In this document: positions 2,188 through 45,327 of the stretch, piece by piece
Layout of the letters: each line of letters opens with the position of its first letter
Position numbering within the stretch: the first letter of the stretch is position 1
Virus record (IMG/VR): IMGVR_UViG_3300045988_138996
Span: 160,001 to 224,000 of that record
Source: a virus
Reading direction: 5' to 3' (one strand)
DNA length: 64,000 bases
Made by a program: the position numbers and the translations under genes
Notes under the pieces: model-generated
The model's input: only the letters and a program-made list of their open reading frames with translations
Told to the model about the DNA's origin: nothing
Databases searched by the model: none

Positions 2188-2721
2188 ATGCCTTATGAAA
2201 TAGACGGATGTAAATATAAAACAAAAGCTCTTCGTGATACACATATTCTTTGGAACGAATATAAAAAGAAAAAATTAATCAAGAGCTTTGAACTTCCACA
2301 AGTTAAAGATAAGATTAAGAAAAGCCGATACTTTTCATATAAGCCGTATGTCGATGATATTAAATTCGACAGCTTGATGGAAGCAAGTTATTATATTTAC
2401 TTAAAAGAAAAACTCAAGAAAAAAGAAATTCTTGGATTTGAACGGCAAGTAACGTATGAACTACAACCTGGTTTTAGAAAAAATGGTAAGAAAATTTTAC
2501 CAATTAATTATATAGCCGATTTCGTAATTACGAATCTTGATAAAAGTATTCGTGTTATCGATATTAAGGGTAAGGTTACTGTCGATTTCAATCTAAAGAA
2601 AAAATTATTTGAATATAAATATGAAGAGTTGAAACTCGAATGTTTACAATTTCACGATGGACAATGGATGTCTCTCGACGAAATTAAAAAATTAAAAAGA
2701 AAGACTAAAAAGAAAAAATAA
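2188..2721 (+). CDS. DUF1064-family PD-(D/E)XK-like endonuclease
   Basis: FDSLMEASYYIYLKEK...ELQPGF...ILPINYIADFVI...VIDIKG matches the DUF1064 layout. Start moved to ATG 2188 (MPYEIDG), just after the upstream stop. Confidence 0.7.
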   Translation: MPYEIDGCKYKTKALRDTHILWNEYKKKKLIKSFELPQVKDKIKKSRYFSYKPYVDDIKFDSLMEASYYIYLKEKLKKKEILGFERQVTYELQPGFRKNGKKILPINYIADFVITNLDKSIRVIDIKGKVTVDFNLKKKLFEYKYEELKLECLQFHDGQWMSLDEIKKLKRKTKKKK

Positions 2722-3554
2722 TGTCCGAACGTAAAATATTAGACGGACAAAGAGAAGCTTGGGAAGAAGTCGATTCATTAGTATTAGAATGCCAAAGTCA
2801 TAATACTGATCCTCGACGTCGAGATGAATTATTACAAGAACTATTAATTCGATTTGAACCATTCTTAAATATGTTCCGTGATCTATTATTAGAAGATAAA
2901 ATTTATCTTAATAATAAAGTATCGCGAGAATTTATCGGATTATATATTGCTAATAAATATTTACGATCTAAAGTATTTAAAAATTGGCATCTTAATAAAG
3001 ATGAATATGCCGAAGTAAATCGTAGCTTAAGTTTGATTCGTGACAACTATGCTAAACAATGCGATGTCGAACAAGATTTAAAAACATTGTTTTCGACTAT
3101 GGTTATGAAGTATAAAAAAACGAATCGTAGCTTTAATGCATATTTAACATATGTATTCCGCTACGAACTGTTTAGATTTATTCAAGCCCATCTTAAAGAT
3201 CGTATCAATAATTCATACGATCGTTCCGATATGAACGATATTGGCGTGAGTAATTTGTCTTCATTAACGATGCATAAAGCTGATCTTCTCGATCAAATTG
3301 TTGTTGACGATGACGGGAACTTTAGCGAATTATGGATTAACGGTGAAGTATGTAATGATTTGTTTTCACATCTTACCCCAACAGAACGTTTAATATTAGC
3401 TATGGTATATGCAGAAAATGCTAAGCCAGTCGAAATAGCTAATAAGATCGGAGTCGATATTCAGACGTATCGTAAGATTCGTCGTGGCGCTTTAAATAAG
3501 CTGGAAAAGCTTACGGGTAAAGATATCAATCGACGCAAAAAAAGAAACGAGTAG
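2721..3554 (+). CDS. sigma-70-family-like transcription factor
   Basis: C-terminal region-4-like HTH: TERLILAMVYAENAKPVEIANKIGVDIQTYRKIRRGALNKLEKL. Region-2-like FNAYLTYVFRYELFRFIQ. Confidence 0.6.
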   Translation: MSERKILDGQREAWEEVDSLVLECQSHNTDPRRRDELLQELLIRFEPFLNMFRDLLLEDKIYLNNKVSREFIGLYIANKYLRSKVFKNWHLNKDEYAEVNRSLSLIRDNYAKQCDVEQDLKTLFSTMVMKYKKTNRSFNAYLTYVFRYELFRFIQAHLKDRINNSYDRSDMNDIGVSNLSSLTMHKADLLDQIVVDDDGNFSELWINGEVCNDLFSHLTPTERLILAMVYAENAKPVEIANKIGVDIQTYRKIRRGALNKLEKLTGKDINRRKKRNE

Positions 3555-14040: not shown

Positions 14041-17000
14041 ATGTCTAAAAAAATTGTTACTCGTGCATACTTCGGTCTTTATAATCCAGCTCGCAAAGGT
14101 TTGACTATTGATACAGATAATAATAATACTGGTAGTCAACCAGCTGTCTATAATAAAGCTGTCGAAAACGTAACAAAACAAGCAGCAGAAAACAAAGCAA
14201 CATCTGCTGCCAACAAAGCGTTAGCCGAAGCTAACCAAGCTGCTGTAGCTAAAGTAGCTGCCGATCTTGCTGCTAAACAAGCACAAGACGTTATTACATT
14301 CTTGAGCAAAGTCGAAGCTGCTGCTCAATATCAACCTAAAGGTGAATATATCACCGATGCTAAAGTAGCTGAAAAAATTACTGAAGCTCAAGGTAAAGCC
14401 GACGAAGCTGCTGCTGCTAAATTTGCGACTAAAGCAGAACTCGAAACAGCTACAGGTGGCGTATCTGCTCAAGATCTTAAAACATTAAAAGACGCGATCG
14501 ATCTTTTAAAAGATAACCCAGATAGCATTGCTGAAATTGCTAAGAAAGCTGATAAAGATAAAGTATACGATAAAGATGCTATCGATAAGTTAATTAAAAA
14601 ACTTAACGATAAAGATACTGATCTTGAAAAAGCTATTGCTAAAGCAGCTACTGCCGATGACGTAGTCAAAGCAGCTGAACTTACTGAAAAAGTTAAAGCT
14701 ATTGTCGATTTAACTCCGTTTGCTAAAGCTACTGAAGTTGAAGCTACATATGCTAAAAAATCTGATTTGGCCGATAAAGCCGATAAAGCTGTTATCGAAA
14801 CTGAACTTGCTAAAAAAGCTAATGCTAGCGATTTGACTCCGCTTGCTACAAAAGAAGAAGTGGCGGCGAAAGCCGATGTTACAGCTCTTGCTACAAAAGC
14901 TGATCAAACAGCACTTGATAATCTTAAAGCTGAAGCTGATGCAAATAAAGCTGCTGTTACTGCTGAAGTTGCTGCTCGTAAATCTGCCGATACACTAAAC
15001 GATGCTAAAGTACAAGGTATTGCTGACGATGTATCTAAAATTAAAATTGATGCGGCTCAAGCTAAAGTAGAAAATGAAAAAGCATTAAGCCGCAAGGCGG
15101 ATCAAGAAGCAGTTAATACAGCATTAGCAGAAAAAGCGACAAAAGCAGAAGCTGCTGAAGCTAAACAAGCTGCTGTTGATGCTGCAAAAGAAGCTGCTAA
15201 AGCTAATACTGCATTAGAAGGCAAAGCTGATGCAACAGCTCTTGAACCATTGGCAACTAAAGAAGCTTTGAAAGCTGCTAAAGATGAATTAATTCAAGCT
15301 GTCGAAGCTGCTAAGACTGTTGCTGAAGAAGCTAAAGCCGAAGCTAAAACCGGTGAAGCTGTGACTGAAGCTAAAGAAAAAGCTACTGCTGCCGATGCTA
15401 AAGCTAAAGAAGTTGAAGCTGCTCTTGTTAATTATGTAACTAAAGCAGTTGCCGATGAAACATATCAACCTAAAGGTGAATATGCAACTAAAGCTGAAGT
15501 ACAAGCTATCGGTTCTTTAGATCCTACTACGTTGCAATCTCTTAAAGATTTAGCTCAACAATTAGCTGGTCAAGCTGATTTGACTACTGTACTTGATAAG
15601 TTAAATAAAGTATTCACTAAAGACGAAGTTAACGAAAAACTTGCGGCAAAAGCCGATGTAACTGCTCTTGAAGAATACGCAGAGAAAAACGACGTTATAT
15701 CTAAACTTAAAGACAAAGCTGATAAAGTACAAGTAGCCGAAGATATCGAAGCTGCTAAAGCTGTTGCCGATGCTGCTGTTCGTGAAGTAAATACAACTGC
15801 TCAACAAGCTAAAGCTAAAGCTACTGAAAATGCTACAGGTCTTGAAGAAGCAAAAACTAAAGTCGAAAAAGCAATTGAAGATCTTGGTAAATTAACGACT
15901 AAAGTTAATGACCTTGCTCTTAACGGTGGTGCTGGCGGCAGTCTTGACGCACAAGCTGTAGCCGATAAAGTTAAAGAAGTTGTCGATGCTATCGTAGCTC
16001 AAGAAAAATATGTAGGCGAAACTAAGCTTAACGAAAAACTTGCTGACAAAGCTGACGTAAGTGCATTGACCGCAGTTCAAGTTAAAGCTGATAAAAACGC
16101 TTCTGATTTATTAGCTAAAGCCGATGTAAGTGCTCTTGCTGATAAAGCTGATAAAACTGTATTTGAAGCTAAAGCAACTGAACTCGATACAAAATTAAAT
16201 ACTCTCGAAACAGCTACTGTTCCTAATTTAATCGATACTAAACTTACAGCTAAACTTGCTGGTTATCAAGAAAAAGGCGAATATGTAACTAAAGAAGCTG
16301 CTGATCGTGATTATCAACCAAAAGGTGAATACGCTACAGCTGCTGCTTTAGAAGAAGTTAAAACTAAAGCTAATGCTAATGAAGCTTTGATTAACGGCCT
16401 CGATAAAGATACTTTGGTGCATACTACCGATCTTGATACATATGCTAAAGCTGCTAAAGTAACAGAAGATATTTCTGCTGCCGTTGCCGGTCTTGGCGAT
16501 GTATATGTAGCTAAAGCTGATGCTGATGTGTTTGCCAAGAAAGCTGATGTAACGACTGAAATCGGTGCAAAAGCTACCGAAATTAAAAAATATGCTGACG
16601 ACACATTTGCTACTAAACAACAATTAGATAATGCAACTATTGCTGCTGGTGGTTCTGGTTTGACTCAAACTCAAGTCGAAGGTATTGTCGACAATAAATT
16701 AGGCGCTCTTAAAGATGCCGTTCAAACTATCGCTAATATCCAATCTGGTGTTAACGACAATAAATCTTCTGTCGAATCTATTCTTGCTGAATTGGCTAAG
16801 AAAGCTACTAAAGACGAATTAGCTGGTAAAGTTGCAACTACTGATTTCGAAGACGCAAAACAAACTCTTAATACAGCAATCACAGCTCAAGAAAATGCAT
16901 TAGCTGCTGCTAAGACTGCATTAGAAAAAGCTATTAACGATAAGTCTGAAGAAGCTGCTGCTGCTTATCAAACTAAAGTCGATTTTGCTGCTTGGACTCG

Positions 17001-18282
17001 TGATGTATACGGTACTGAAATTGCTCGTATTAAAGACGATATGATGACAGCTCAAGAAACTGATGCTGCTATCGATGCTAAATTAGCGACTAATCTTGAA
17101 ACTCTTAAAGGCATTTTCCAAGTTAAAGGTAATTACTTAACTCGTGAAGATTTAACTAATACTCTTAAAGATGGTTACATCACTAAGAATGAATCCGATC
17201 GTTTATATCAAGGTGTAGGCAACTATGCGACTATTGAATATGTCGACGATCAAATCGGTAAAAATAAAGTTAAAATCGACGAAGTTAATACGGCTATTGC
17301 TAATAAACTTGATGTAAGTGCTGCGACTAGCCTATATCAAACTAAAGGCGATTACGTATTACATAGCGAACTCGATACATTAGCAACTACTCCGACTTTT
17401 GCAAATGCTATTAATACAGCTATTGTAGGTAAAGGTTATCTCGATAAAGAAACTGCCGATGGTTACTATGCTCCTAAAGGTCAATATGTAACGACTGAAA
17501 ATATCGAAGATGCAATCGCTACGAGTGCTGCCGTTACGGCTAAACAAGATGCTCTTACTTTCGGTAATGGTTTATCTTATGATGCCGATACAAAAACTTT
17601 GACAGCTACCGGTACTGGTGCTTCTGTTGACTTAACTCCTTATGCTAAGAAAGCTGAATCCGATGCTAAGTATGGTCCAAAAGATACTTTAACTGAAGAT
17701 CAAAAAGGTGTAGTAGAATCTATCCTTCGTGATAAGAACTATGCTACAAATGCAGATCTTGGTAGCTATAGTGCAAGCATGGATACTAACATTGGTCAAT
17801 TAAGAGCTAGTATCAATACTTTAAAAGATACTACTGTTCCAGCTATCGATACTCGTGTAACTGCATTAGAAGGCAAAGCTGCTCCTACAGATTTCACTGA
17901 AGATCAAAAGACTAAATTAAATGAAATCCTTACTGGCAAACATTATACAACTTCTGATGATATCGACAATGCTAAAGCTGAACTTAAAAATGAATTAGCT
18001 ACTCAAGATTCTGTAACTCAACTTGCTAACCAAACTCTTACAACTGCTGAAGGTAAAGTTAATGAAGCTAAAGAAGCGTTGGAAGGCAAAATCACAGAAT
18101 TGAAAAATACTGTAGATGAAATCCATGTTCCAGATTTAAGTGCTTACGAAACTCAAGCTCAAGCAGAAGCTAAATATTTAAAACTTGAAGATATCGAAAC
18201 TAAGTTAAAAGAAAAAGGCTTTATTACTCAAGCTGATTTACAACCTATTCTCGATGCAATTAAAGCATTAAAAGGTGAATAG
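14041..18282 (+). CDS. giant Ala/Lys/Glu/Thr-rich repeat fibre protein
   Basis: 1413 aa. At least 8 copies of [YF]-x-x-[KV]-G-x-Y (YQPKGEY x3, YQEKGEY, YAPKGQY, YQTKGDY, FQVKGNY, YQGVGNY). Many KADV(T/S)AL / ATKA repeats. Confidence 0.7.
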   Translation: MSKKIVTRAYFGLYNPARKGLTIDTDNNNTGSQPAVYNKAVENVTKQAAENKATSAANKALAEANQAAVAKVAADLAAKQAQDVITFLSKVEAAAQYQPKGEYITDAKVAEKITEAQGKADEAAAAKFATKAELETATGGVSAQDLKTLKDAIDLLKDNPDSIAEIAKKADKDKVYDKDAIDKLIKKLNDKDTDLEKAIAKAATADDVVKAAELTEKVKAIVDLTPFAKATEVEATYAKKSDLADKADKAVIETELAKKANASDLTPLATKEEVAAKADVTALATKADQTALDNLKAEADANKAAVTAEVAARKSADTLNDAKVQGIADDVSKIKIDAAQAKVENEKALSRKADQEAVNTALAEKATKAEAAEAKQAAVDAAKEAAKANTALEGKADATALEPLATKEALKAAKDELIQAVEAAKTVAEEAKAEAKTGEAVTEAKEKATAADAKAKEVEAALVNYVTKAVADETYQPKGEYATKAEVQAIGSLDPTTLQSLKDLAQQLAGQADLTTVLDKLNKVFTKDEVNEKLAAKADVTALEEYAEKNDVISKLKDKADKVQVAEDIEAAKAVADAAVREVNTTAQQAKAKATENATGLEEAKTKVEKAIEDLGKLTTKVNDLALNGGAGGSLDAQAVADKVKEVVDAIVAQEKYVGETKLNEKLADKADVSALTAVQVKADKNASDLLAKADVSALADKADKTVFEAKATELDTKLNTLETATVPNLIDTKLTAKLAGYQEKGEYVTKEAADRDYQPKGEYATAAALEEVKTKANANEALINGLDKDTLVHTTDLDTYAKAAKVTEDISAAVAGLGDVYVAKADADVFAKKADVTTEIGAKATEIKKYADDTFATKQQLDNATIAAGGSGLTQTQVEGIVDNKLGALKDAVQTIANIQSGVNDNKSSVESILAELAKKATKDELAGKVATTDFEDAKQTLNTAITAQENALAAAKTALEKAINDKSEEAAAAYQTKVDFAAWTRDVYGTEIARIKDDMMTAQETDAAIDAKLATNLETLKGIFQVKGNYLTREDLTNTLKDGYITKNESDRLYQGVGNYATIEYVDDQIGKNKVKIDEVNTAIANKLDVSAATSLYQTKGDYVLHSELDTLATTPTFANAINTAIVGKGYLDKETADGYYAPKGQYVTTENIEDAIATSAAVTAKQDALTFGNGLSYDADTKTLTATGTGASVDLTPYAKKAESDAKYGPKDTLTEDQKGVVESILRDKNYATNADLGSYSASMDTNIGQLRASINTLKDTTVPAIDTRVTALEGKAAPTDFTEDQKTKLNEILTGKHYTTSDDIDNAKAELKNELATQDSVTQLANQTLTTAEGKVNEAKEALEGKITELKNTVDEIHVPDLSAYETQAQAEAKYLKLEDIETKLKEKGFITQADLQPILDAIKALKGE

Positions 18283-29841: not shown

Positions 29842-30219
29842 ATGAAATATCCACGAGCCGCTATGGTTCATAAATTTTTATTTATGATGCTAGTTGAACT
29901 AGCTCCTTATACTCGAGGCTCTCTCGATTTTTTACATGTATCGAACGAAGCTTTTCGTCTATTAATGAATATCGTAAGAGACGAACATAATATATCGTTG
30001 TATAACGAAATGCGATCGTACTCTTTAGATTATCAAGGTCTTATCGATAGAGAACATAATAATTATAATATCTTAGGCGAGCGAATTAAAGTTCTTATTA
30101 TGATGATTGTTAATTCGTTCTATATGTTTAATAAATGTGATGAACGATATTTTAATCTTTATAAAGATAAAATAAGAGGAGTACGAAATGTTAAATTCTT
30201 TAGATATACGCAATATTGA
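29842..30219 (+). CDS. family-C paralog 1 (hypothetical)
   Basis: 125-aa ORF after GGAGGAAA. First of seven similar-sized tandem ORFs. Confidence 0.55.
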   Translation: MKYPRAAMVHKFLFMMLVELAPYTRGSLDFLHVSNEAFRLLMNIVRDEHNISLYNEMRSYSLDYQGLIDREHNNYNILGERIKVLIMMIVNSFYMFNKCDERYFNLYKDKIRGVRNVKFFRYTQY

Positions 30220-30562
30220 GAATTTTAAGCTCGATATCATTCATTATATTGCCACTATTGTGGATAAAACCTGGTGGACCTCTAAACATTTTAATCAAAG
30301 ATATTATGAAGTGGCCGATATCTATAATATATCGGTTCTTGCGCTTGCTGATTTTAAGGGTGGCGATTATTTAAAACTTGGATTCATTAGTTATACTTCT
30401 ATTTATTATTATATTATAGATTGTAGTAATAAAAAGATGCTCACCGAGTGCGAGAAGAAATATATCGAACTTAGTATTTTATATTATAATAAATATCGAC
30501 AAGATAAAGATTTAACAGGTATAATAATTAAACAAATGAGGTTAGATAATGGACTATTATGA
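30188..30562 (+). CDS. family-C paralog 2 (hypothetical)
   Basis: LDIIHYIATIVDKTWWTSKHFNQRYYEVADIYNISVLALADF aligns with paralogs 3 and 6. Confidence 0.55.
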   Translation: MLNSLDIRNIENFKLDIIHYIATIVDKTWWTSKHFNQRYYEVADIYNISVLALADFKGGDYLKLGFISYTSIYYYIIDCSNKKMLTECEKKYIELSILYYNKYRQDKDLTGIIIKQMRLDNGLL

Positions 30563-30920
30563 AACTAGAGTATCTCTAATATTTTATTTATACGAAATGG
30601 TCGATAAGGATTCTTGGCGGCTTAATAATAGTTTAAATAAATTTAGAGTTGTATCTGATTTATATAGAATATTATTGGATGTGTTATCCGAGTTCGTTAA
30701 TGTGCGTTATGGTAATCTTAGCGATGCAAATGAAGAAGACGTAAGAGAAGTTATTACCGACAGCGCCTACTGCTCCTTGTCAAAATTCAAAGACGAAAAA
30801 GCACTTCGTTATATAAAAATTACGTATCTATTATATAATAATATTCGCGATCTGCCATGGAACTTATCCGATAAAATTTGTAAAACTATACGAGAAGGAA
30901 AATATGAATGCCAAAAATAG
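30549..30920 (+). CDS. family-C paralog 3 (hypothetical)
   Basis: VSLIFYLYEMVDKDSWRLNNSLNKFRVVSDLYRILLDVLSEF. Confidence 0.55.
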   Translation: MDYYETRVSLIFYLYEMVDKDSWRLNNSLNKFRVVSDLYRILLDVLSEFVNVRYGNLSDANEEDVREVITDSAYCSLSKFKDEKALRYIKITYLLYNNIRDLPWNLSDKICKTIREGKYECQK

Positions 30921-31245
30921 AACGATAGCCGTACTTAAATATATTAATTCTATAGAATCAGCTAAATCTCGGTATATAAATAATGCTTCTGAAAATATAG
31001 TCTGTACTATTTATTATATTTATAAAGATATAATAAGAGAATTATCGCCGGGTCATCACGTATTAAAAAACGTTAGTTCTATTAGAGCTCATGTTTTAAT
31101 ACAACAAGATACAAGCTACGCTTTACCGGAAAAATATCGTAAGTTAATTACGTTAATTTCTTTTTATTATCGTCCAGGGTCATTTTTTCCTCTTGTCGAA
31201 ATGATAATAGAACGAAGTAAAAATTTGTTTGGAGGAAAGTTATAG
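30904..31245 (+). CDS. family-C paralog 4 (hypothetical)
   Basis: RTIAVLKYINSIESAKSRYINNASENIVCTIYYIYKDIIRELSP aligns with paralogs 5 and 7. Confidence 0.55.
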   Translation: MNAKNRTIAVLKYINSIESAKSRYINNASENIVCTIYYIYKDIIRELSPGHHVLKNVSSIRAHVLIQQDTSYALPEKYRKLITLISFYYRPGSFFPLVEMIIERSKNLFGGKL

Positions 31246-31596
31246 ATGGATAGACAAAAGGAACTTGTCGAATATATATATAAACTTATTAATTCTAATT
31301 TTCGATATAGAAAATATAAGATACACGATAAGACTTTCGTCGTTCATTTTGTTTATAATTTATTCTATGCTATATTTAAAGCATCTTATCCGAGAGATAG
31401 AATACAACCAATTGCGTCGAAATTTCATTTTAATCTCGTTATGTCTCATAAAGCAAAAAATGCATATTATCCGTCTAAAAAAGAAAAGAAGATAATAAAC
31501 GTTGCATTATTTAATTATAACGCAACTGAATATAATAATTCTAAGTTAAAAGATCTTGTCGATCTGGCTCAGCATTATATGGAGAAATTTAAATAA
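31246..31596 (+). CDS. family-C paralog 5 (hypothetical)
   Basis: KELVEYIYKLINSNFRYRKYKIHDKTFVVHFVYNLFYAIFKASYP. Confidence 0.55.
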   Translation: MDRQKELVEYIYKLINSNFRYRKYKIHDKTFVVHFVYNLFYAIFKASYPRDRIQPIASKFHFNLVMSHKAKNAYYPSKKEKKIINVALFNYNATEYNNSKLKDLVDLAQHYMEKFK

Positions 31597-32018
31597 TGAG
31601 TATTACTAAATATTTTAACGAAGAAGAATATGTTACACATTGTGCTAAGCTAAAAGAAGATATGATACTTTATATAAATCAGTTTCTTCACTCAAATCAT
31701 TGGAGGATGAATTATCCATCAGATCATTACGTTATGATATCTGATATATATAATATAGCACATCCTTTATTATACGATTTTAAAGATAATTGGCACGATC
31801 ATTTATCTGATACTAACTTTGTCGAAGTTAGTGAATATGCTAAATATTTTAAAAGTCGGATACCGTTAGCCGACGATGTTAAAGTTTTCATTCAGATCGT
31901 TATATTATATTATTTTAAACATTTCGAAAATTCTAATTTTATGATTATATATAATAAGATACTCGATGACATGTGTGAATTTTATGATACGTCAGTAGTA
32001 TTGAGTAAAAGGATTTAA
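31596..32018 (+). CDS. family-C paralog 6 (hypothetical)
   Basis: EDMILYINQFLHSNHWRMNYPSDHYVMISDIYNIAHPLLYDF. Confidence 0.55.
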   Translation: MSITKYFNEEEYVTHCAKLKEDMILYINQFLHSNHWRMNYPSDHYVMISDIYNIAHPLLYDFKDNWHDHLSDTNFVEVSEYAKYFKSRIPLADDVKVFIQIVILYYFKHFENSNFMIIYNKILDDMCEFYDTSVVLSKRI

Positions 32019-32021
32019 ATA

Positions 32022-32381
32022 ATGACTGTAATGAACGGCGCTCGAGAAATCAAGATAGTACTCTTTATACGCAAATTAATTAAGGAGCACAAAAAATACA
32101 TTAATTATCGCATCAGCGACGAAGGATTTATTGTTTTCATGGTGTTTAATTATTATTATGAGGTCATGAAACGGATTCATCCTAAAGCACAAGTATGGCA
32201 GCTAAAAAATACATTCGATGTATGTACCGTTATGCGACATAAGAAAATAAAATATAAACTAAGTAAAGAAGATAAACGATGTATTCTTATAGCATTTCAT
32301 CTGTTTAATCGCATAGAATATAATAAAACATTAGTCGATAATGTTATTGCTAATTTATTTAAGCTAAGAGAATATCATTAA
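32022..32381 (+). CDS. family-C paralog 7 (hypothetical)
   Basis: EIKIVLFIRKLIKEHKKYINYRISDEGFIVFMVFNYYYEVMKRIHP. Confidence 0.55.
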   Translation: MTVMNGAREIKIVLFIRKLIKEHKKYINYRISDEGFIVFMVFNYYYEVMKRIHPKAQVWQLKNTFDVCTVMRHKKIKYKLSKEDKRCILIAFHLFNRIEYNKTLVDNVIANLFKLREYH

Positions 32382-33086: not shown

Positions 33087-33172
33087 TTAGATAGGCTCAG
33101 TAACATAGTCCAGCTGTATGACTATAAACTATAGTAATGTATATCATTGTATGTCATAAGGAGGAAAAGATC

Positions 33173-33607
33173 ATGACAACAACAACTTATTTAAATTTAG
33201 AAACATTGGCAATCGAAACAAAGAATAGTGCAAGAGATTATATGGATCTCTTAGACTCTGCTCAAAAGTATTATGCCAAGAAAGGCATAAGAACTATGAA
33301 AGGAAGAATAGGAGATGTATGTTTCTTGCAAGAAAGGGAATGTAGGAATGTTCTTATGCTTGCAACAATGGATGGTCATACAAAATGTGACCTTAAAACA
33401 GTAACAGACAAGATTATGTCACTGCCTTACTATGCTGTAGCACGAGGCTATATGCCGGGTGTATTCCGCACATGGTCTCAGTGCAAAGATTCTACAGACG
33501 GTTTTACCGGCAGAAAGTACAAAAAATTTGCCGGTAGAGAAGCTGCCATCCAGTTTATGATAGATAACAATGCTCCATTAGTGAGCTATGATTATCTAAC
33601 AAAATAA
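33173..33607 (+). CDS. protein with C-terminal RNase H1 N-terminal (hybrid-binding / Cauli_VI) domain
   Basis: RBS AAGGAGGAA. YYAVARGYMPGVFRTWSQCKDSTDGFTGRKYKKFAGREAAIQFM (nt 33428-33559) fits the FYAVxxGxxxGIYxxWxxxxxxVxGxxxAxYKxFxxxxEAxxF signature. Confidence 0.65.
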   Translation: MTTTTYLNLETLAIETKNSARDYMDLLDSAQKYYAKKGIRTMKGRIGDVCFLQERECRNVLMLATMDGHTKCDLKTVTDKIMSLPYYAVARGYMPGVFRTWSQCKDSTDGFTGRKYKKFAGREAAIQFMIDNNAPLVSYDYLTK

Positions 33608-33631
33608 TTGTTTTTAGAGGAGGAATTCAAA

Positions 33632-34672
33632 ATGAAAAGTATGTTAGAATTAAAGAAAGCATTTGCAGCAACAAAAAAAGTTAATAATAGTGGTGATTGG
33701 TTGCAACATAAAGCAACTCTTCAAGAATTAAAAACAGCTAATATTAGATGTCTAATTATTAGCGAAGAATCTTGCATTCTCGATGTAGTTGGCGCAAATG
33801 TAACTGGTGCCATTACAATGGAAGATGTTAAAGAATCCGCTGTTGTAGTTAAGGGCAAAGGCGTTAATTTCGATGGAGACTATCGATTGACAGAAAAGTC
33901 GATGGCCAACGTCGAAAACATTATTGATGATCTTTTGCTTATTGTAGGGAACTTCAAAGAGAAAGAAGATGCATGTAATTCTTTTACATTTGAAGGAGAT
34001 GTATATGTACCAATCTCTTTATCGGCAAGTGCGTTAAGACAAGGAAAACGCTTTGCTGTTAAAGAAGAATTGTTAGATAAATGGTTAACCAAATTGAAAA
34101 AAGTTAACCATGGTATTGGTAGCTTTGAAGGAGAAAAGACTCTTAAGGTCGGAAAGGCGACTAAACTTTCTACATATGGCAACTTATGGTCTGCCAACGG
34201 TAAAGAATTCGTTGTCGACCTTAACGAATATTGCTTCATGATATTTGATAACATGGCAATATTCGGTACAGAAGATAACATGGATGGTCAATCATATCAT
34301 TCGCATTATGATTTTTGCGAGTTATATGGCTGTCCAAAAGATAAACCATTATATCTACAGGCTCGTGTTTCCGGATGTACTAAAACTGGTAGTTTGCCAG
34401 TTAAAAATATGTCCGGATTTTGGGCATTGGCAGCAGAGTGCAAACAATACTCTGTAATGTCTCTGTCTGAAGTAGACAGAGACTATTCTGGTGAAGAACC
34501 AGCTGTATGGATTGTCGGTAATCCATGCGGCAAATTATTATATGTAACCGATTTTAACGGCTTTAAAGCCGTCCCAGGTTACATAGATCCGAAGGAGAAC
34601 ACATTTAAAGTTCTTCAGATTATTGAATCGACGCAAGCAAAAGTGTCGAGTCAATTGATTCAACACATTTAA
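33632..34672 (+). CDS. candidate beta-like (lysine-bearing barrel) subunit of a split two-barrel RNA polymerase
   Basis: RBS AGAGGAGGAA. MDGQSYHSHYDFCELYG...LYLQARVSGCTKTGSLPV resembles the DGxGxIS...FQIRYGGYKGV signature of RdRP/YonO-type enzymes. Adjacent to the DFDTD-bearing gene. Confidence 0.45.
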   Translation: MKSMLELKKAFAATKKVNNSGDWLQHKATLQELKTANIRCLIISEESCILDVVGANVTGAITMEDVKESAVVVKGKGVNFDGDYRLTEKSMANVENIIDDLLLIVGNFKEKEDACNSFTFEGDVYVPISLSASALRQGKRFAVKEELLDKWLTKLKKVNHGIGSFEGEKTLKVGKATKLSTYGNLWSANGKEFVVDLNEYCFMIFDNMAIFGTEDNMDGQSYHSHYDFCELYGCPKDKPLYLQARVSGCTKTGSLPVKNMSGFWALAAECKQYSVMSLSEVDRDYSGEEPAVWIVGNPCGKLLYVTDFNGFKAVPGYIDPKENTFKVLQIIESTQAKVSSQLIQHI

Positions 34673-34697
34673 TTTAAATAATAAGAGGAGAATAATC

Positions 34698-35867
34698 ATG
34701 AAAAAACAATATCTAGTAGAAAAATTAACAAAAGAAACTGTTAAACAATTTGAGTCCTACACTGAGGGCTCATTTGGAGGCACTGGTATAGATGCCGCCA
34801 TTCTTGCTGATGGTAGAGTTGCATATGATAAATATGTATTCTCTGCTAAAGCAAATAGCTTAGCAAAGAACATGAGCAAAGTAATTAAGTCTTTAAAGAT
34901 GTCTGGAGATTCTGACTCCAGATATCTTAGAGGTGCAGGTGATACTGTATGGATGTTTTCTCAAGGCATTCTTGCAGATGATGAAGTATTGGTAACAAAT
35001 AAACGTTTGTTGCAACATGGCGAAGCATATGTTGTACGTTTCCCTCATAGCGCAAGAAGTGAATTTGCACACGTTCGTATGCTCGGCAAAGCTGAGTATA
35101 TCGAACGTATTGAAGAAAGCGACTTAAAGCCCGCATTTAAGATGTTGGCAATTGAAGTTGCTAAAAGCTTACCAGAAACAACTTTCTTATGTTCTGGTAG
35201 TTCTGTATTTAAAGGTTTAACTGGTGGATCTGATTTCGATACAGATGGCTTTATGTTCCTAGTTGGCGAGGATGCTCAAATCTTCGCTGACTGGAAACAA
35301 AGATCTGTCGATATTCCAGACGATATCGGTGAAGCTTCTTCTGTTACTTTTAATAATTTCTCTGAGCTAATGGAAGGCGTATTTAACGCTAACATTAGTA
35401 CAGGTAACACAGACGTTGGTGAGTTTTGTGTCGCGACAAGCACAGCAATCACAGTATTGCAAAACTTGGACAATGCAGAACTTATTAAAAAATTGCAAGA
35501 AAACATTGCTAAAGAATTTGGTAATGAATTCGATGGCAACGTAGAATATTCTCGTTATTATGTTGGTGATGAAGATATTGCAATGGAGGACGTGCGTAAT
35601 GCTAAAATTGAAAGCATTACAATGTCTTTCGTTGCGTCTGATCGCAGTGCAGAATCTATTAAAGCATATTTAGAAGATGTGCTAGAAGCTGCACCTGCAG
35701 TAATTGGCATGATTATAGATAGTGCTAAAACAGGCTTAAAGGTGTGGGATCCATTAAGCTTCTTGTTCGACGGCATCAAACAAGCACGTCGATCTGCTCC
35801 TCCTAAAATTAAGTGGAACGAAGAAGAATCTAAATTCTTCGTAGAGGAGGATAGCAGAGTTAAATAA
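34698..35867 (+). CDS. candidate catalytic (beta-prime-like DPBB, DxDxD) subunit of a split two-barrel RNA polymerase
   Basis: RBS AAGAGGAG. YVVRFPHSARSEFAHVRMLG, then FLCSGSSVFKGLTGGSDFDTDGFMFLVGED. Compare NPCLHPGDVRVL and SGSDLDGDxYFVxWD (RdRP), NRxPTLHR and NADFDGD (beta-prime). Confidence 0.55.
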   Translation: MKKQYLVEKLTKETVKQFESYTEGSFGGTGIDAAILADGRVAYDKYVFSAKANSLAKNMSKVIKSLKMSGDSDSRYLRGAGDTVWMFSQGILADDEVLVTNKRLLQHGEAYVVRFPHSARSEFAHVRMLGKAEYIERIEESDLKPAFKMLAIEVAKSLPETTFLCSGSSVFKGLTGGSDFDTDGFMFLVGEDAQIFADWKQRSVDIPDDIGEASSVTFNNFSELMEGVFNANISTGNTDVGEFCVATSTAITVLQNLDNAELIKKLQENIAKEFGNEFDGNVEYSRYYVGDEDIAMEDVRNAKIESITMSFVASDRSAESIKAYLEDVLEAAPAVIGMIIDSAKTGLKVWDPLSFLFDGIKQARRSAPPKIKWNEEESKFFVEEDSRVK

Positions 35868-35913
35868 TTAATTCATTGTGCGACCGACACGTTAATCCGG
35901 CAAGGAGTTCAAA

Positions 35914-36873
35914 ATGAAAAAACAACAAGAGGTTATTTATTTAAAAGATACAATGTACGAATTACAGTTAGAGGCTGCAGTTCGTGCAGTAGAGGAAATT
36001 AATGTTGTACTAGAAGCTAATGGTATCGCAGGTAATATTGAAAAGTTGCCAGCTAAAGGCTTCTTTGATACATACAACAAAATCTGCGCAGATTTGAGCA
36101 AGTCCGAATCTATCGATATCAAAGGCTTAGATATCGAAGGTAACTTTAGCAAAGCTAAAGAATACATTGCGAACACTATTCGCATGTATTTAGGCGATGC
36201 GGAAGACAAATATGAAGCCGCTAAAAACAGTGGCTTCAATTTTGCCAGCTCTGTATTAGAGTACGAGCTTGTAATGAACAGTATCACAAGTGGTGCTATC
36301 TGGCGCAGAAAAAATGGGGAACAAGATTTAGCAAGTTCTCCATTAATGAAAGACATCGATGTGTTCTGCATCGATCCTTCCAACAACAACATTCTTGACG
36401 GCGATCAAGTGGTGTTTGAAAACGGTCGTTCTTTAGATGGCCGTTTCTTCACATCTACTTCTGTTACTGGTGTGCAACCAGTGTTTAGAAGAGAAGATGG
36501 TGGTCTGTTCATCGTTGTTCATATTCTCGAAACATTAGAGGCGCCTACAGAAGAACCTATCTTCGCTGTTCGTAGTAGCGATAGTGAAAATGTATCCAAA
36601 AATATTTTCTTGGCGCAAGAAAAGGGTTATAAATTCTTCTTGCTTCCTAATAGTAAAGGGAAGCAAGGAGACGGTTTGTATGTAGAATCTATGAAAGAAG
36701 GCTCTGCAGGTAAACTTATTAAGATCATCTCCTGTGAAATTGTAGGAGATAAAACTTTTATTTCTCACTTCTGTGGCGAAGTAAAAGTTGACGATGTGTT
36801 ATTCAACGTAATTAAGAAAGATGGTTACGGTGAAGATATTAAGTCTGCCACATTGTTGTTACGTAAAGCATAG
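35914..36873 (+). CDS. hypothetical protein, possible third subunit or accessory of the polymerase
   Basis: 319-aa ORF with RBS AAGGAG, co-directional and adjacent. No motif recognised. Confidence 0.5.
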   Translation: MKKQQEVIYLKDTMYELQLEAAVRAVEEINVVLEANGIAGNIEKLPAKGFFDTYNKICADLSKSESIDIKGLDIEGNFSKAKEYIANTIRMYLGDAEDKYEAAKNSGFNFASSVLEYELVMNSITSGAIWRRKNGEQDLASSPLMKDIDVFCIDPSNNNILDGDQVVFENGRSLDGRFFTSTSVTGVQPVFRREDGGLFIVVHILETLEAPTEEPIFAVRSSDSENVSKNIFLAQEKGYKFFLLPNSKGKQGDGLYVESMKEGSAGKLIKIISCEIVGDKTFISHFCGEVKVDDVLFNVIKKDGYGEDIKSATLLLRKA

Positions 36874-37004: not shown

Positions 37005-37022
37005 GGGCTCCGCTCCGAAATC
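37005..37022 (+). promoter_or_regulatory. TCC-loop hairpin motif, copy a (GGGC-TCC-GCTC-CGAAATC)
   Basis: Member of the 8-copy motif family. Intergenic, 80 nt upstream of ATG 37102. Confidence 0.6.
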
Positions 37023-41654: not shown

Positions 41655-42215
41655 TATTAAGGAGCGAGCGTCAGCGAGCGACTGTATATTATTTTATATA
41701 TAGTAAGCCCGAGCGAAGCGAGGGCGTATATATCAAGTTCTCTGTGTACTCTCTTCTAAAGAGAGTAGTTTTGTATTTATTTAGTATAGTCTAAGGCGAG
41801 CGAAGCGAGCCGTATATTCTTTGTTTACTTTCTTTTTAAGAAAGTAATTATGTTTATTATTTATTATTAGTAGTTCTCTGCTGTCTCTCTTGTAAAGAGA
41901 GTAGTTATATTATTAGTATTTTATATGTATAGATTCTCTGTTATCTCTCTTATCAAGAGAGTAATTAGTTATTTTATATATATGTATCATAATAGTATTA
42001 ACGCAGCGAGCGAAGCGAGCGGAGTATGTATTATGTAGTATGTAGTTATTCCCGAAGAACGAGGAACGCTAGTGACGAGTGAATTGTAGTGTCCTAGCGT
42101 AAGCGACGATCATAAGAGTATATATTGTATATTATATATAGGGCGAGCGAGGGGAGCGTCAGCGACCGGAGCGAGCATAGTATTATTATATAATATATTA
42201 TAGGGAGCATAGCGA
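41655..42215. repeat. GC-box repeats (GAGCGAAGCGAG-type) each followed by GTAT(A/G)TAT
   Basis: GCCC-GAGCGAAGCGA-GGGC-GTATAT (41707), GGC-GAGCGAAGCGA-GCC-GTATAT (41795), CGC-A-GCGAGCGAAGCGA-GCG-GAGTATGTAT (42002). Degenerate copies at 41661, 42141 and 42203. Confidence 0.6.
41735..41966. repeat. four copies of a 35-nt unit with a CTCTCTT-NNN-AAGAGAG hairpin
   Basis: Hairpins at 41747-67, 41825-47 (variant ACTTTCTT-TTT-AAGAAAGT), 41885-901 and 41945-61. Flanked by TTCTCTG... upstream and TA(G/A)TT downstream. Confidence 0.65.
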
Positions 42216-43483
42216 CCGGAGTATATATATAGTCTTATAGGAGCTAGATAGGCCAATAAGGATTGGTGAATATTTAGTATATCGTGATATAGTATATCGT
42301 ATTATACTATAGTAGTATATAGTAAATATGTGAGATCCTTATTTACAGTAAAAAGAAAAATTCGGCCTTGAAAATTTACAGGTCGTAGACCGGAAAATTT
42401 TAAGTATTTTCCGCCCGGGGATATCTATATCATATATATAGTATAAGAAGGAACGTAGTGACTGGTAGATATATATTATGTTAATAATATAGTATATTTT
42501 CTGCCGTCGGTATTTTGTTAAAAGAGAGACTACTATATATAATAATTTCCGCCTAGGATATTATGGTTTATATATAATATGTTTTTAGTTAATGTTTTTC
42601 CTGTATGCATACGCATACAGATATTAAAAACTTTTAGGGTGGGATATCTTATAATAATATTGAACGTCAGTGAAATGTTATTATAGATTTAAATCTATAT
42701 TAGATATAATTTTAATGAGAGCTATTAATGTGAAGAATAGGGAGCGCCGCGAATCTATTCAGCTATTAAAATTCTTAGTCGACACGATAGTATAGTATGG
42801 TAGAGATCGTGTCGATAGGTTACGAGTGCTAACGAGTTATATGTAGAATTCGTTGAGATGAAGGATGTTATCGATGAGCCCGCGAAGAGAAACATCGTTC
42901 TTTAGAATTCGTAACAATATATCTAATGCGTTTGTGTATTATCAATATATATCAAGAAAATATATACTGATGTGTTTGAGTGAAGCTTGCGAAAAGAAAA
43001 ACGCAATCAATTTTTATATATCGTAACGAAGCCCGTAAGGGTTCGTATTAGTATTATATATAGCTTATGAATATAAGCGTATGTATATAACTATTAATAC
43101 GAATTATACCAAAGTATTAGAAGTTAGTAAGCGTCTAATAAGTAGGTGGTTTTTGTTTGGGATCCGCCGTTATCTTAGTATTTCATTTACTAGCTAAGGT
43201 ATTTAAAAGTCCCTTGCGTTTATTTTAGTCGAGTTATTTTATATATAATATTATATATAATAATAACGAAGAGCCATTACTGTTAAGAATGGATAGTAGA
43301 CGAAATTGGGAACGGGCCCCAATAATAGTTATTATATTCTCTTAGAGAATATATAACGTCAATGGTTCGTCGTGTACGATCCTTTTCGAGTTTCGCAGAA
43401 AATTACGTAAGTAAGAGTTTGTAGCATTTGTAAAATGGGACAACATTTTGTTAGTATTCTCGCTATGTTACACATAGCGACAC

Positions 43484-43513
43484 AAAAAAAGACCCCGAAT
43501 TAATTTCGAGGTC
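43484..43513 (-). terminator. minus-strand rho-independent terminator
   Basis: On the - strand, GACCTCGAA-ATTAA-TTCGGGGTC pairs perfectly with one G.U, followed by 7 T. On the + strand there is a C.A mismatch and no T-run. Confidence 0.6.
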
Positions 43514-43608
43514 GTTATATATTGTTTACTAAAAGCGATGAACTACGTTCATCGGTATATTACTCATGTTTAAGTATAAGTTATTAATAATTTAAAAAAA
43601 TAATTCAG

Positions 43609-43633
43609 AAAATAAAAAAGACCCCGAAGGGCC
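43609..43633 (-). terminator. minus-strand rho-independent terminator
   Basis: On the - strand, GGCCC-TTCG-GGGTC (UUCG loop, one G.U pair) followed by TTTTTTATTTT. Confidence 0.55.
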
Positions 43634-43811
43634 ATTTTTATATAAGTATTTTTTTAATATTCAAAGCGGTGCGAAGCGAAGCGTAGCAAACCGTGGAGCG
43701 TAGCGGAACGGTGAACTGCGTTCACCGGTATATTACTCTGTTTAGATACGTCGTTAATCAAAAATAAAAAAATATTTTTTATTTAATTCTATTATATATA
43801 TAACAAGCAAT

Positions 43812-43853
43812 AAAAAAAACAGCCTCAGATTTTTATGACCTGGACTGTTTTGT
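43812..43853. terminator. bidirectional terminator-like hairpin
   Basis: An A8 run, an imperfect ACAGCC...GGACTGT stem, then TTTTGTGTG. Confidence 0.35.
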
Positions 43854-44007
43854 GTGTGTAAAAACGGAAGCGGTGTAACGTAGTTACACCGGTATATTAC
43901 TCAAGTTAGGTATATCATTAATCAATTTTGTAAAAATAATTAAATATTCATTATTAATGCATAAAGTAAGACAGGGGTATTTTTAAGTTAAAAAAATAGA
44001 AAAAATT

Positions 44008-44035
44008 AAAGTCAGATAATATCTGGCTTTTTTTA
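44008..44035 (+). terminator. plus-strand rho-independent terminator
   Basis: AAAGTCAGAT-AAT-ATCTGGCTTT, where the G.U pair works only on the + strand, followed by TTTTT. Confidence 0.55.
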
Positions 44036-44470
44036 ATTTTAATGTCTGGTTTAGTATATATAGGAAACAATAAAACATAATATACAGAATATGTATATTT
44101 ATGAATACGAGCTTTTTTCAAAAGCGTTCGCCTACCATAGCTTACTCCGAAAAGTTTAAATGAAACGTCGTAAGCGTACTAGTGACGCGGGTTTTTAATA
44201 ATTTTATATTTTAAAATTATGTAGGGTTAGGAACGAGGTATATAAAAATTGCTCCCTTAATAGTTCTTATTTATCTCTTATATATACTATATATATAATA
44301 TAAAAGGATTATTTTTTTATATAGTCCGCCGTCTCCTCACGAGCGCCAACCTGAGTTATATTTAGCTATATATATAGGTATTGCTATAGCTTTATTTAGC
44401 TCTGTATATACGGCTAGACCTATTTAAAACATCTTACCTGTATAGGTAGCTCCCTTGGGGGGTGGGGGGA

Positions 44471-44759
44471 GTCCGCAACACTCTCAAGTTTGTTATTTTT
44501 AAGTAAAAACTAGTAAAAATTGTTTATGGCTATTAAAACGATTAAGAGTTGGTAACACTCTGTATTTGCTGTTAATTAACTAAAAATGGCTGTTTTTATA
44601 TATACAGCTATTAAAATCATTTTAAGTCCGCAACACTCATAATGTCTCCCTTTTTACACAAAAACAGCTTATTTTGCAATAACTAAGTTTCGTATTTTTG
44701 CAGTATTTTATAATATTTTAGTTTATGACTATTAATATCTATTAAGTCCACAACATTCA
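44471..44759 (+). repeat. four iteron-like direct repeats (GTCCGCAACACTC core)
   Basis: GTCCGCAACACTC at 44471 and 44627, GTTGGTAACACTC at 44548, GTCCACAACATTC at 44747. Three of them are preceded by (G)CTATTAA(A/T)A..ATT(TT)AAG. Spacing is 77, 79 and 120 nt. Confidence 0.6.
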
Positions 44760-44803
44760 TAAAAACGTCTTAAATAGTTAAAAACAATATATTTTCATAT
44801 TAA

Positions 44804-44831
44804 ATGTATTTGGTCATATGTATTTGGTCAT
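44804..44831 (+). repeat. perfect tandem duplication ATGTATTTGGTCAT x2
   Basis: Read directly from the sequence. Followed by several hundred nt of TA-rich low-complexity DNA. Confidence 0.8.
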
Positions 44832-45264
44832 ATAATATATTTAATTAATATAGTGTATTGCTATATATATCATTAATCTGTTATAGCAACTTTATTAGTA
44901 TTTAATAGCTATATATAGTCATATATATAGTTTATTGTTATATTATATATATGGTTTAATATATATTGTCATATATATGTATATAGTTAACGTATTATAT
45001 TATAGTTTATCATTAGTATAGTATTAACAGTTATATTAGTATTTAGTATTATGTTATTAGTAGTATTAGTGTTATTATATATATAGTAAGAGTAATAATA
45101 AAGAGAAACTATTAAATGAAAAGATGCGGGCGATTTTGTATATTGTTTTTTATATCAATCTAATGAATTGCCGCATTTGATTTTTATATGTATGATATAT
45201 TTATCAGCATATGATTAATAACTGTATATGGTTTTATATATATAAGGCTAATGTCATTAAGTAC

Positions 45265-45282
45265 GTGCTCCGCACCGAAATC
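45265..45282 (+). promoter_or_regulatory. TCC-loop hairpin motif, copy f (GTGC-TCC-GCAC-CGAAATC)
   Basis: Compensated stem. 46 nt upstream of ATG 45328, the first gene of the small-gene array. Confidence 0.6.
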
Positions 45283-45327
45283 TCCCGTAGTCCTTTTTTA
45301 TTATATAGGAATTAATGAGCGTAGAGA

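Follow-up and report, generated by a model that had tools for sequence, protein, structure and literature searches.

Three adjacent genes on the + strand of an uncultured virus likely encode the subunits of one small two-barrel RNA polymerase, the type to which the RNA polymerases of cells and those of RNA silencing belong. These genes, here called P1, P2, and P3 (Table 1), lie in a stretch of 64,000 nucleotides (positions 160,001 to 224,000 of IMG/VR record IMGVR_UViG_3300045988_138996; hereafter "the window"), and their products would belong to the polymerase branch that resembles RNA-dependent RNA polymerases (RdRPs) and is related to QDE-1 and Pfam family PF05183. It seems probable that they form a heterotrimer that is DNA-dependent and transcribes phage genes. 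A preliminary description of this DNA had already placed the two barrel signatures on separate polypeptides, each behind a strong ribosome-binding site, and these sites (GAGGAGG, AAGAGGAG, and AAGGAG) can indeed be read in front of the respective open reading frames (ORFs).

The evidence for a common origin of the three proteins comes from sequence profiles. A P2 profile built from split homologues only was searched against 1.84 billion representative proteins and found 116 protein clusters (39 at E <= 1e-10), mostly proteins of 1100 to 1500 aa that are matched mid-chain at about residues 450 to 900 (e.g., P0158 at E 7e-45, P0165 at E 3e-23, and P0172 at E 1.6e-18). By profile matching, P1, P2, and P3 are a three-way split of one polypeptide, since the stretch matched by P2 in these proteins is immediately preceded by a match to the P1 profile and followed by one to the P3 profile. 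In P0158, the P1 profile covers residues 161 to 475 (E 9e-33), the P2 profile residues 487 to 884, and the P3 profile residues 917 to 1251 (E 4.5e-10). The same colinearity is seen in P0160, P0161, P0162, and P0169, with the P1 profile directly before the P2-like part at residues 179 to 409 of P0160 and 218 to 391 of P0161. The order of the genes equals that of the fused segments, i.e., the basic-residue barrel segment stands N-terminal to the Asp-triad segment and is followed by the C-terminal region, and the concatenated P1, P2, and P3 of the window align with 44 fused relatives across both junctions without loss of residues. The suggestion that the 319-aa downstream product (P3) could be a third subunit is supported by its profile match to the C-terminal third of these fused proteins. 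In a joint alignment of 46 sequences that includes distant fused relatives and has a mean column identity of 16%, P3 residues E118, G171, and G186 are near-invariant (at least 90%).

The fused relatives also connect the family to a known class of polymerases. Pfam family PF05183 (gathering threshold 23.8 bits) is matched at E <= 0.01 by 17 of 30 fused relatives, with P0165 (45 bits), P0172 (30.4 bits), and P0158 (25.8 bits) above the threshold, and no other polymerase family was matched. The consensus of the joint alignment scores 65.6 bits (E 4.8e-18) over Pfam positions 23 to 514 of 582, and the matched stretch of the consensus comprises the P1 part plus about two thirds of the P2 part. Searched against all PDB sequences, the joint profile finds QDE-1 entries best (E 2e-4) with RDR2 weakly behind, and the HMMER register places the family motif DG...QaRvlgiaKG on DG...QGRF-GSAKG of QDE-1 and GGsDfDgDg on GGDYDGD. 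The RNA_pol_Rpb1 and RNA_pol_Rpb2 domains of Pfam are matched neither by P1, P2, and P3 nor by the fused relatives. The profile searches proposed as a check in the preliminary description have thus left RdRPs as the sole polymerase family, reached via the family alignment and the fused relatives. The label "YonO/cellular-RdRP-like" given there holds for its RdRP part, and its YonO part is marginal (hhalign probability 7%, E 0.005).

The superfamily of two-barrel polymerases is defined by eight invariant residues, which are D709, R738, K743, R962, P964, D1007, D1009, and D1011 in QDE-1 (Ruprich-Robert and Thuriaux, PMC2919709). All eight are present here as D218, R245, and K251 of P1 and R114, P116, D179, D181, and D183 of P2. 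None of them varies within the split family, each is invariant or conserved to at least 90% across the 46 aligned sequences, and all are in HMMER register with QDE-1. Longer motifs are invariant within the lineages of the split family (138 P2 homologues and 35 P1 homologues), namely R114-F-P116, E122, S166-G-S, K172-G-L-x-G-G-x-D179-x-D181-T-D183-G, and I-I-D-S-A-K-T-G in P2 and D218-G-Q-S-Y-H, Y-L-Q243-x-R245-x-S-x-C-T-K251-T-G-S, and T-D307-F-N-G-F-K312 in P1. A supposed equivalence of the IIDSAKTG motif of P2 with the DFPKTG motif of RdRPs was not confirmed, as the profile of this region found no RdRP match in the PDB. A bare DxDxD string is uninformative, as DKDTD also occurs in an unrelated 1413-aa ORF of the window (14041 to 18282). 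The motif match as a whole is more than chance because the residues are invariant or nearly so at such low mean identity and because the family matches the Pfam RdRP model.

All ORFs and strings quoted in the preliminary description are present: YVVRFPHSARSEFAHVRMLG corresponds to P2 residues 111 to 130, FLCSGSSVFKGLTGGSDFDTDGFMFLVGED to P2 residues 163 to 192 with DFDTD at 179 to 183, and FGTEDNMDGQSYHSHYDFCELYG...LYLQARVSGCTKTGSLPV lies in P1. The coordinates given for DFDTD (35232 to 35246) and for the Q..G part (Q243 to G253; 34358 to 34390) are exact. The two P2 hallmark strings follow each other in the order described, but their spacing of "about 50 aa" was an underestimate, with 65 aa from R114 to D179. 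Profile links to single chains that pass the Pfam RdRP threshold, the register with QDE-1, and the full set of eight residues support the interpretation of the P2 Asp triad and the P1 basic residues as signatures of a two-barrel polymerase.

The split is a stably inherited feature. It is kept together with gene order, Shine-Dalgarno sites, and start sites in three lineages of about 95%, 77%, and 50% identity found on contigs of 220 to 240 kb. Loci of the 77% lineage (L010) and of the 50% lineage (L001) have the same three ORFs in the same order with spacers of 12 to 28 nt and their own Shine-Dalgarno sites (25 nt between P1 and P2 and 46 nt between P2 and P3 in the window); the P2-P3 junction of L001 reads TAAAATG, and P3 is syntenic in all lineages. 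P1, P2, and P3 of the window and L010 are 78% to 82% identical, and the ratio of nonsynonymous to synonymous substitution rates (dN/dS) is 0.05 for P1 and 0.09 for P2, with dN of 0.14 to 0.19 and saturated synonymous sites. P1 and P2 are under strong purifying selection. P1 had been listed with a TTG start at 33608, but its start is ATG 33632 because the matching Met is the start in all 35 homologues and because the GAGGAGG sequence stands ahead of it; P2 and P3 begin with ATG as well. Terminator-like hairpins are absent from the P1-P2 and P2-P3 spacers and flank the three-gene block, an arrangement consistent with a single operon from which all three proteins are probably produced.

On viral contigs of IMG/VR (112 to 233 kb) and in one Firmicutes metagenome-assembled genome (MAG), the relatives are mostly fused proteins of 992 to 1842 aa. 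For this reason, fusion appears to be the prevalent condition and the arrangement in three genes a derived one, a polarity that we infer from the present distribution. There are hints that fission occurred independently in other cases, namely P2-like proteins that stand alone in other clusters (P0156, P0159, and P0189) and a possible two-ORF form with 649 and 548 aa on a 38 kb viral contig (L008, 5275 to 8885). Together, P1, P2, and P3 have 1054 aa (ca. 120 kDa), which is a normal size for fused relatives, and the term "miniature" used for the enzyme in the preliminary description is therefore apt in a relative sense only. Extra domains occur in some fused relatives: P0158 has a YpsA/SLOG domain at its C-terminus, and others have a helix-hairpin-helix domain or the C-terminal domain of ribosomal L7/L12. 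The 1842-aa fused form comes from the MAG of Firmicutes CAG:95 (L009, 3517 to 9045).

Where the two cuts fall is informative about the likely division of labor. The first separates the basic-residue barrel motif from the Asp-triad barrel motif. In single-chain enzymes, the "connector" between the barrels corresponds to the C-terminus of beta plus the N-terminus of beta-prime of bacterial polymerase, as described in the P23-45 RNA polymerase paper. Judged by motif order, the first cut is therefore at the same topological place as the beta/beta-prime boundary, and the comparison with a beta/beta-prime-style split made in the preliminary description was apt. The invariant IDxxKTG motif precedes the second cut by about 45 residues. 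According to the same paper, the C-terminal region of QDE-1, gp66, and gp64 contributes to the clamp, and by analogy P3 may be the C-terminal clamp or head region, an assignment made by position only.

In the enzyme that we propose, the barrel contributed by P1 would bear the basic residues R245 and K251 together with D218 as an auxiliary Asp, that contributed by P2 would bear the R114-x-P116 motif and the triad D179-D181-D183 for Mg binding, and P3 would add the C-terminal domain that is part of the clamp in solved relatives. Made from one operon with a ribosome-binding site each, the three proteins would assemble, and the active site would form at the interface of P1 and P2 like that of beta and beta-prime. 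The complex should polymerize nucleoside triphosphates given its homology and intact catalytic residues, and by analogy with YonO, crAss-like gp66, and P23-45 gp64 it would copy phage DNA into RNA. Phage transcription is the likeliest role because the phage relatives tested in the literature considered here (YonO, crAss-like gp66, and gp64/gp96 of P23-45) are DNA-dependent transcriptases. In this role, the complex would be a transcriptase of the phage itself that serves one class of genes, perhaps the genes behind the TCC-loop hairpin and CGAAAT element described below.

Several points weigh against this interpretation. P1, P2, and P3 have singly no match in Pfam (E <= 1), in PHROGs, or among PDB sequences, and concatenated P1 and P2 have none in Pfam at E <= 10; YonO has no direct Pfam match either. 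The only deviations in the catalytic motifs are in the basic motif of P1, where one extra residue stands between R245 and K251 and K-T-G replaces K-G. AlphaFold2 models are of low confidence (predicted local distance difference test score of 59.7 for P2 and 48.9 for P1) and too poor to show barrels, with shallow inputs of 16 sequences for P2 and 35 for P1. In none of three Foldseek searches was there a significant match (E of at least 0.066). The top matches of the P2 model in the PDB were QDE-1 and beta-prime chains, those in BFVD were LEF-9, phage entries named "RNA dependent RNA polymerase", crAss-like proteins, and P23-45 gp64, and nothing significant was found for the P1 model. The order of strands and helices near RFPH and DFDTD in the P2 model is compatible with a double-psi barrel. 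Finally, a 277-aa protein encoded at 2721 to 3554 (+) has a sub-threshold match to sigma-70 region 4 (21.4 bits vs. a cut-off of 24.1), because of which the phage may also redirect or use the host RNA polymerase.

These poor structure models and the lack of direct database matches for the window proteins are also what would be expected if P1, P2, and P3 were decaying fragments of a once-fused gene or if their motifs resembled those of polymerases by chance and served an unrelated function. This explanation is close to refuted by intact ORFs and conserved starts in more than 100 clusters and three lineages, by the low dN/dS of 0.05 to 0.09 with all catalytic residues invariant, and by profile E-values to RdRP-family proteins that are far beyond chance. 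In GenBank phages, no match was found for the window proteins by blastn or tblastn (including P2 by tblastn) or for the fused relative P0162, and the fused relatives have no match in PHROGs.

The gene directly upstream of P1 is relevant to what the template might be. Its product combines an RNA:DNA-hybrid and double-stranded RNA (dsRNA)-binding domain of RNase H1 type with the absence of an RNase H catalytic domain. The gene has the same position in the 77% lineage (L010/L011) and is absent from L001 of the 50% lineage, and the products encoded in the window and in L010 share only 47% identity, compared to the much better conserved P1, P2, and P3. The gene evolves faster than the polymerase genes, and its protein is a possible accessory factor at most, probably encoded in the polymerase operon. 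Its presence would suit a true RNA-dependent RNA polymerase or a QDE-1-like enzyme that makes RNA:DNA hybrids or dsRNA from single strands and serves regulation or counter-defence rather than bulk transcription. The family is indeed closer in sequence to the eukaryotic RdRP model of Pfam and to QDE-1 than to YonO or any DNA-dependent enzyme, and QDE-1 is described as having both activities (PMC9508822). We nevertheless consider such a role unlikely given that every phage RdRP-like enzyme tested so far in the accounts that we draw on (YonO, crAss-like gp66, and P23-45 gp64/gp96) is a DNA-dependent transcriptase, that the 50% lineage keeps P1, P2, and P3 without the hybrid-binding gene, and that no RNA-silencing partners are seen in the window.

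A candidate signal for the enzyme is a short hairpin motif, CTCCGNNNCGAAAT, that has 8 exact matches in the window compared to 0.68 expected. All matches are on the + strand in the orientation of the genes, fall outside crude ORF calls or at their edges, and are confined to 37.0 to 59.7 kb, i.e., downstream of the polymerase genes only; 5 of the 8 lie 39 to 57 nt ahead of a start codon. The element has a GC-rich, covarying stem of 4 to 5 bp, its TCC loop and its 3' CGAAAT are both invariant, and it often stands ahead of another hairpin that is variable and resembles a terminator. Pairing in its 4-bp stem amounts to 97.7% and comes with 11 compensatory cells, a result equalled by none of 500 shuffles. 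A copy directly follows P3 in all three lineages, and the motif is found neither in the loci of fused relatives nor in SPbeta. The covarying TCC-loop hairpin is a good and concrete candidate for a promoter, RNA signal, or other recognition element of this polymerase, a tie that consists in co-occurrence only. Hairpin promoters of phage N4 offer a speculative parallel. By this analogy, we tentatively suggest, as a doubtful but specific idea, that the heterotrimer might initiate at TCC-loop/CGAAAT elements extruded as DNA hairpins with a GGA loop on the template strand, which would be an N4-style promoter for a two-barrel enzyme, and the adjacent hybrid-binding protein may help such initiation. 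If true, hairpin initiation would be a strategy convergent with N4, and a complex that was also virion-borne would be the first virion transcriptase of the RdRP-like kind with a split architecture.

The same hairpins can be read in another way, since they would form most readily in single-stranded DNA where a primase could lay RNA primers on them. A replication role of this kind, with P1, P2, and P3 as a primase or similar enzyme, would agree with the absence of a recognizable DnaG-type primase among the replication genes of the window (DnaB, RecJ, and DnaE), and two-barrel enzymes include the replicative DNA polymerase PolD (PMC4996933). The polymerase genes are, however, about 25 kb away from this replication module and follow tail, lysis, and unknown genes, and a primase may well sit elsewhere in a genome of which the window is about a quarter. 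The strict co-orientation of the hairpins with genes and their position in front of start codons also fit expression better than priming. We know of no precedent for a replicative enzyme of this kind, and all in all this role appears quite improbable.

The source of the window is an uncultured phage of jumbo size with a genome of roughly 225 kb. This follows from P1 and P2 homologues on metagenomic contigs of up to 220 to 240 kb, a few of which are labelled Caudoviricetes, together with phage-like gene content, i.e., a DnaB-like helicase, a RecJ-like exonuclease, a DnaE-type DNA polymerase III alpha subunit, a virion structural protein, and a gp10-like protein of the baseplate or tail. The + strand carries every long ORF, and the GC content ranges from 0.25 to 0.41. 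The nearest isolate by DnaE comparison is Moorella phage MTATph1 with an identity of only 35%. The host is uncertain: the sole taxonomic label among homologues (P0006) is a MAG of Segatella salivae (Bacteroidota), and 52 of the 99 crude gene calls in the window have a Shine-Dalgarno-like sequence in front of them compared to 6% of random positions. Bacteroidota rarely use Shine-Dalgarno sites, so their frequency here fits this label poorly.

Table 1. Positions of the polymerase genes, their key sites, and associated elements (window coordinates unless a locus is named).
Feature	Position	Strand	Remarks
Upstream gene	33137..33607	+	156 aa; RNase H1 N-terminal hybrid-binding domain (Pfam Cauli_VI PF01693, residues 97-140, E 1e-15)
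P1 Shine-Dalgarno	33617..33623	+	GAGGAGG; read from sequence
P1	33632..34672	+	346 aa; N-terminal third; basic-residue barrel signature (DPBB-B, beta-like)
P1 key residues	D218 34283-34285; R245 34364-34366; K251 34382-34384	+	
P2 Shine-Dalgarno	34683..34690	+	AAGAGGAG; read from sequence
P2	34698..35867	+	389 aa; middle third, catalytic; signature of the Asp-triad barrel (DPBB-A, beta-prime-like)
P2 key residues	R114/P116 35037-35045; D179/D181/D183 35232-35246	+	
P2 invariant IIDSAKTG	35712-35735	+	residues 339-346
P3 Shine-Dalgarno	35902..35907	+	AAGGAG; read from sequence
P3	35914..36873	+	319 aa; C-terminal third; helical part, then beta-rich part
Hairpin motif, first copy	37008..37021	+	CTCCGNNNCGAAAT; 135 nt past P3 stop, 39 nt before next gene
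Hairpin motif, further copies	38152, 39000, 39507, 39698, 45268, 53731, 59673	+	
Hairpin motif in relatives	L001 12315, 13311, 13961; L010 12233, 13258		

Other parts of the window have features of their own. The 1413-aa ORF at 14041 to 18282 (+) was considered as a second polymerase and rejected, as its sole DxDxD (DKDTD) lies within Ala/Lys/Glu-rich, repetitive, fibre-like sequence; the protein has a recurring YQPKGEY motif, matches no family, and is probably a fibre or whisker. Seven back-to-back ORFs of 113 to 140 aa occupy 29842 to 32381 (+), four of whose translations look paralogous by eye with similar length and N-terminal halves rich in Tyr, Ile, and Lys, and a run of genes encoding 116 to 138 aa also lies upstream of the polymerase genes in L001 and L010. 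Downstream, the AT-rich region from 41736 to 45327 is almost free of ORFs (gaps at 41795 to 42864 and 43027 to 45327) and has gene-free counterparts in L001 (15515 to 19023) and L010 (14870 to 18342). It contains spaced direct repeats, with 4 copies at 41736 to 41975 that each include a palindrome CTCTCTT..AAGAGAG, 3 copies at 43550 to 43941, and 4 copies at 44470 to 44785. Within its 2.3 kb ORF-poor stretch, Rfam detects an OTKONC RNA (RF03053) at 43293 to 43458 (+) over its full length and above the gathering score (160 bits, E 2.9e-26), a name of which we found no mention in the literature searched. There are no tRNA genes in the window.

Compared to known systems, the closest relatives are single-chain RdRP-like proteins of large uncultured phages (P0158, P0160, and P0162; IMG/VR contigs of 112 to 233 kb, many of them of jumbo size), which share homology over the whole length, the P1-P2-P3 order, and the same invariant residues. 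These are single chains of 990 to 1840 aa with an identity of 15% to 24%, in contrast to the three genes with separate ribosome-binding sites described here, and some of them are labelled automatically as "RNA dependent RNA polymerase [Podoviridae sp.]" in UniProt. This wider family, which has more than 100 clusters of fused relatives from large phages, shows a detectably closer relation to the model of eukaryotic RdRPs than YonO does, and it bears on the proposal that the polymerases of RNA silencing have a phage origin. Eukaryotic RdRPs themselves (PF05183; QDE-1, PDB 2J7N; RDR2) have the same order of motifs, DG...QxRxxxxKG followed by RxP...GGxDxDxD, and the eight residues in common, with no similarity detected outside the two barrels. 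They are single chains that act in RNA silencing on RNA or single-stranded DNA templates, whereas the barrels are on separate ORFs here and the window proteins score below the Pfam model.

YonO of Bacillus prophage SPbeta and the YonO-like proteins of the Firmicute phages 0305phi8-36, c-st, and 1706 are likewise phage-encoded, sigma-independent, minimal two-barrel enzymes of the RdRP-like branch. The catalytic barrel of YonO can be brought into register with that of the family (ILRSPH...FDNDGDKALIISDE vs. VVRFPH...SDFDTDGFMFLVGED), but YonO is a single chain of 839 aa and its hhalign match to the family alignment is marginal, as mentioned above. Protein gp66 of phi14:2, a crAss-like phage, and the Thermus phage P23-45 proteins gp64 (non-virion) and gp96 (virion) belong to the two-barrel RNA polymerases of phages, with QDE-1 as their nearest structural relative. 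Both barrels are on one polypeptide in all three, gp66 and gp96 being part of a giant virion protein, in contrast to the split seen here. The family profile detects no sequence similarity to gp66, gp64, or gp96, and gp64 and its homologue 8F5M appear only as non-significant fold matches. In the solved structures of the gp66/gp64 type, as presented in the P23-45 paper, the clamp is made of the inter-barrel connector, the helix that follows the Asp barrel, and the C-terminal region, which by analogy suggests plausible roles for the P1/P2 junction and for P3.

Two-barrel RNA polymerases are otherwise known as large multisubunit machines or as single chains like QDE-1, YonO, gp66, and gp64, and no account of an RdRP-like phage polymerase that is split turned up in the literature searched, which is not proof of absence. 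If the proposed assembly is correct, the single-chain branch has here been cut into three stably inherited subunits and offers a natural experiment on how an active site is assembled from separate polypeptides, in a small and easily expressed system for exploring the minimal requirements of this class of polymerases. The nearest parallel in architecture is provided by the RNA polymerases of phiKZ- and AR9-like jumbo phages, which also have their two barrels on separate small polypeptides together with extra subunits. These enzymes are derived from beta and beta-prime, comprise 4 to 5 subunits, and have a flap/SBHM insert in the beta barrel, whereas the proteins described here fall into the RdRP-like branch without Rpb1 or Rpb2 domains, a branch described as lacking the flap/SBHM insert (PMC7824862). 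The split reported here arose independently of the one in phiKZ and AR9. The kind of enzyme is thus a known one, the two-barrel RdRP-like polymerases of phages, and what appears new, judged by the literature searched, is the three-subunit architecture kept in a clade of jumbo phages.

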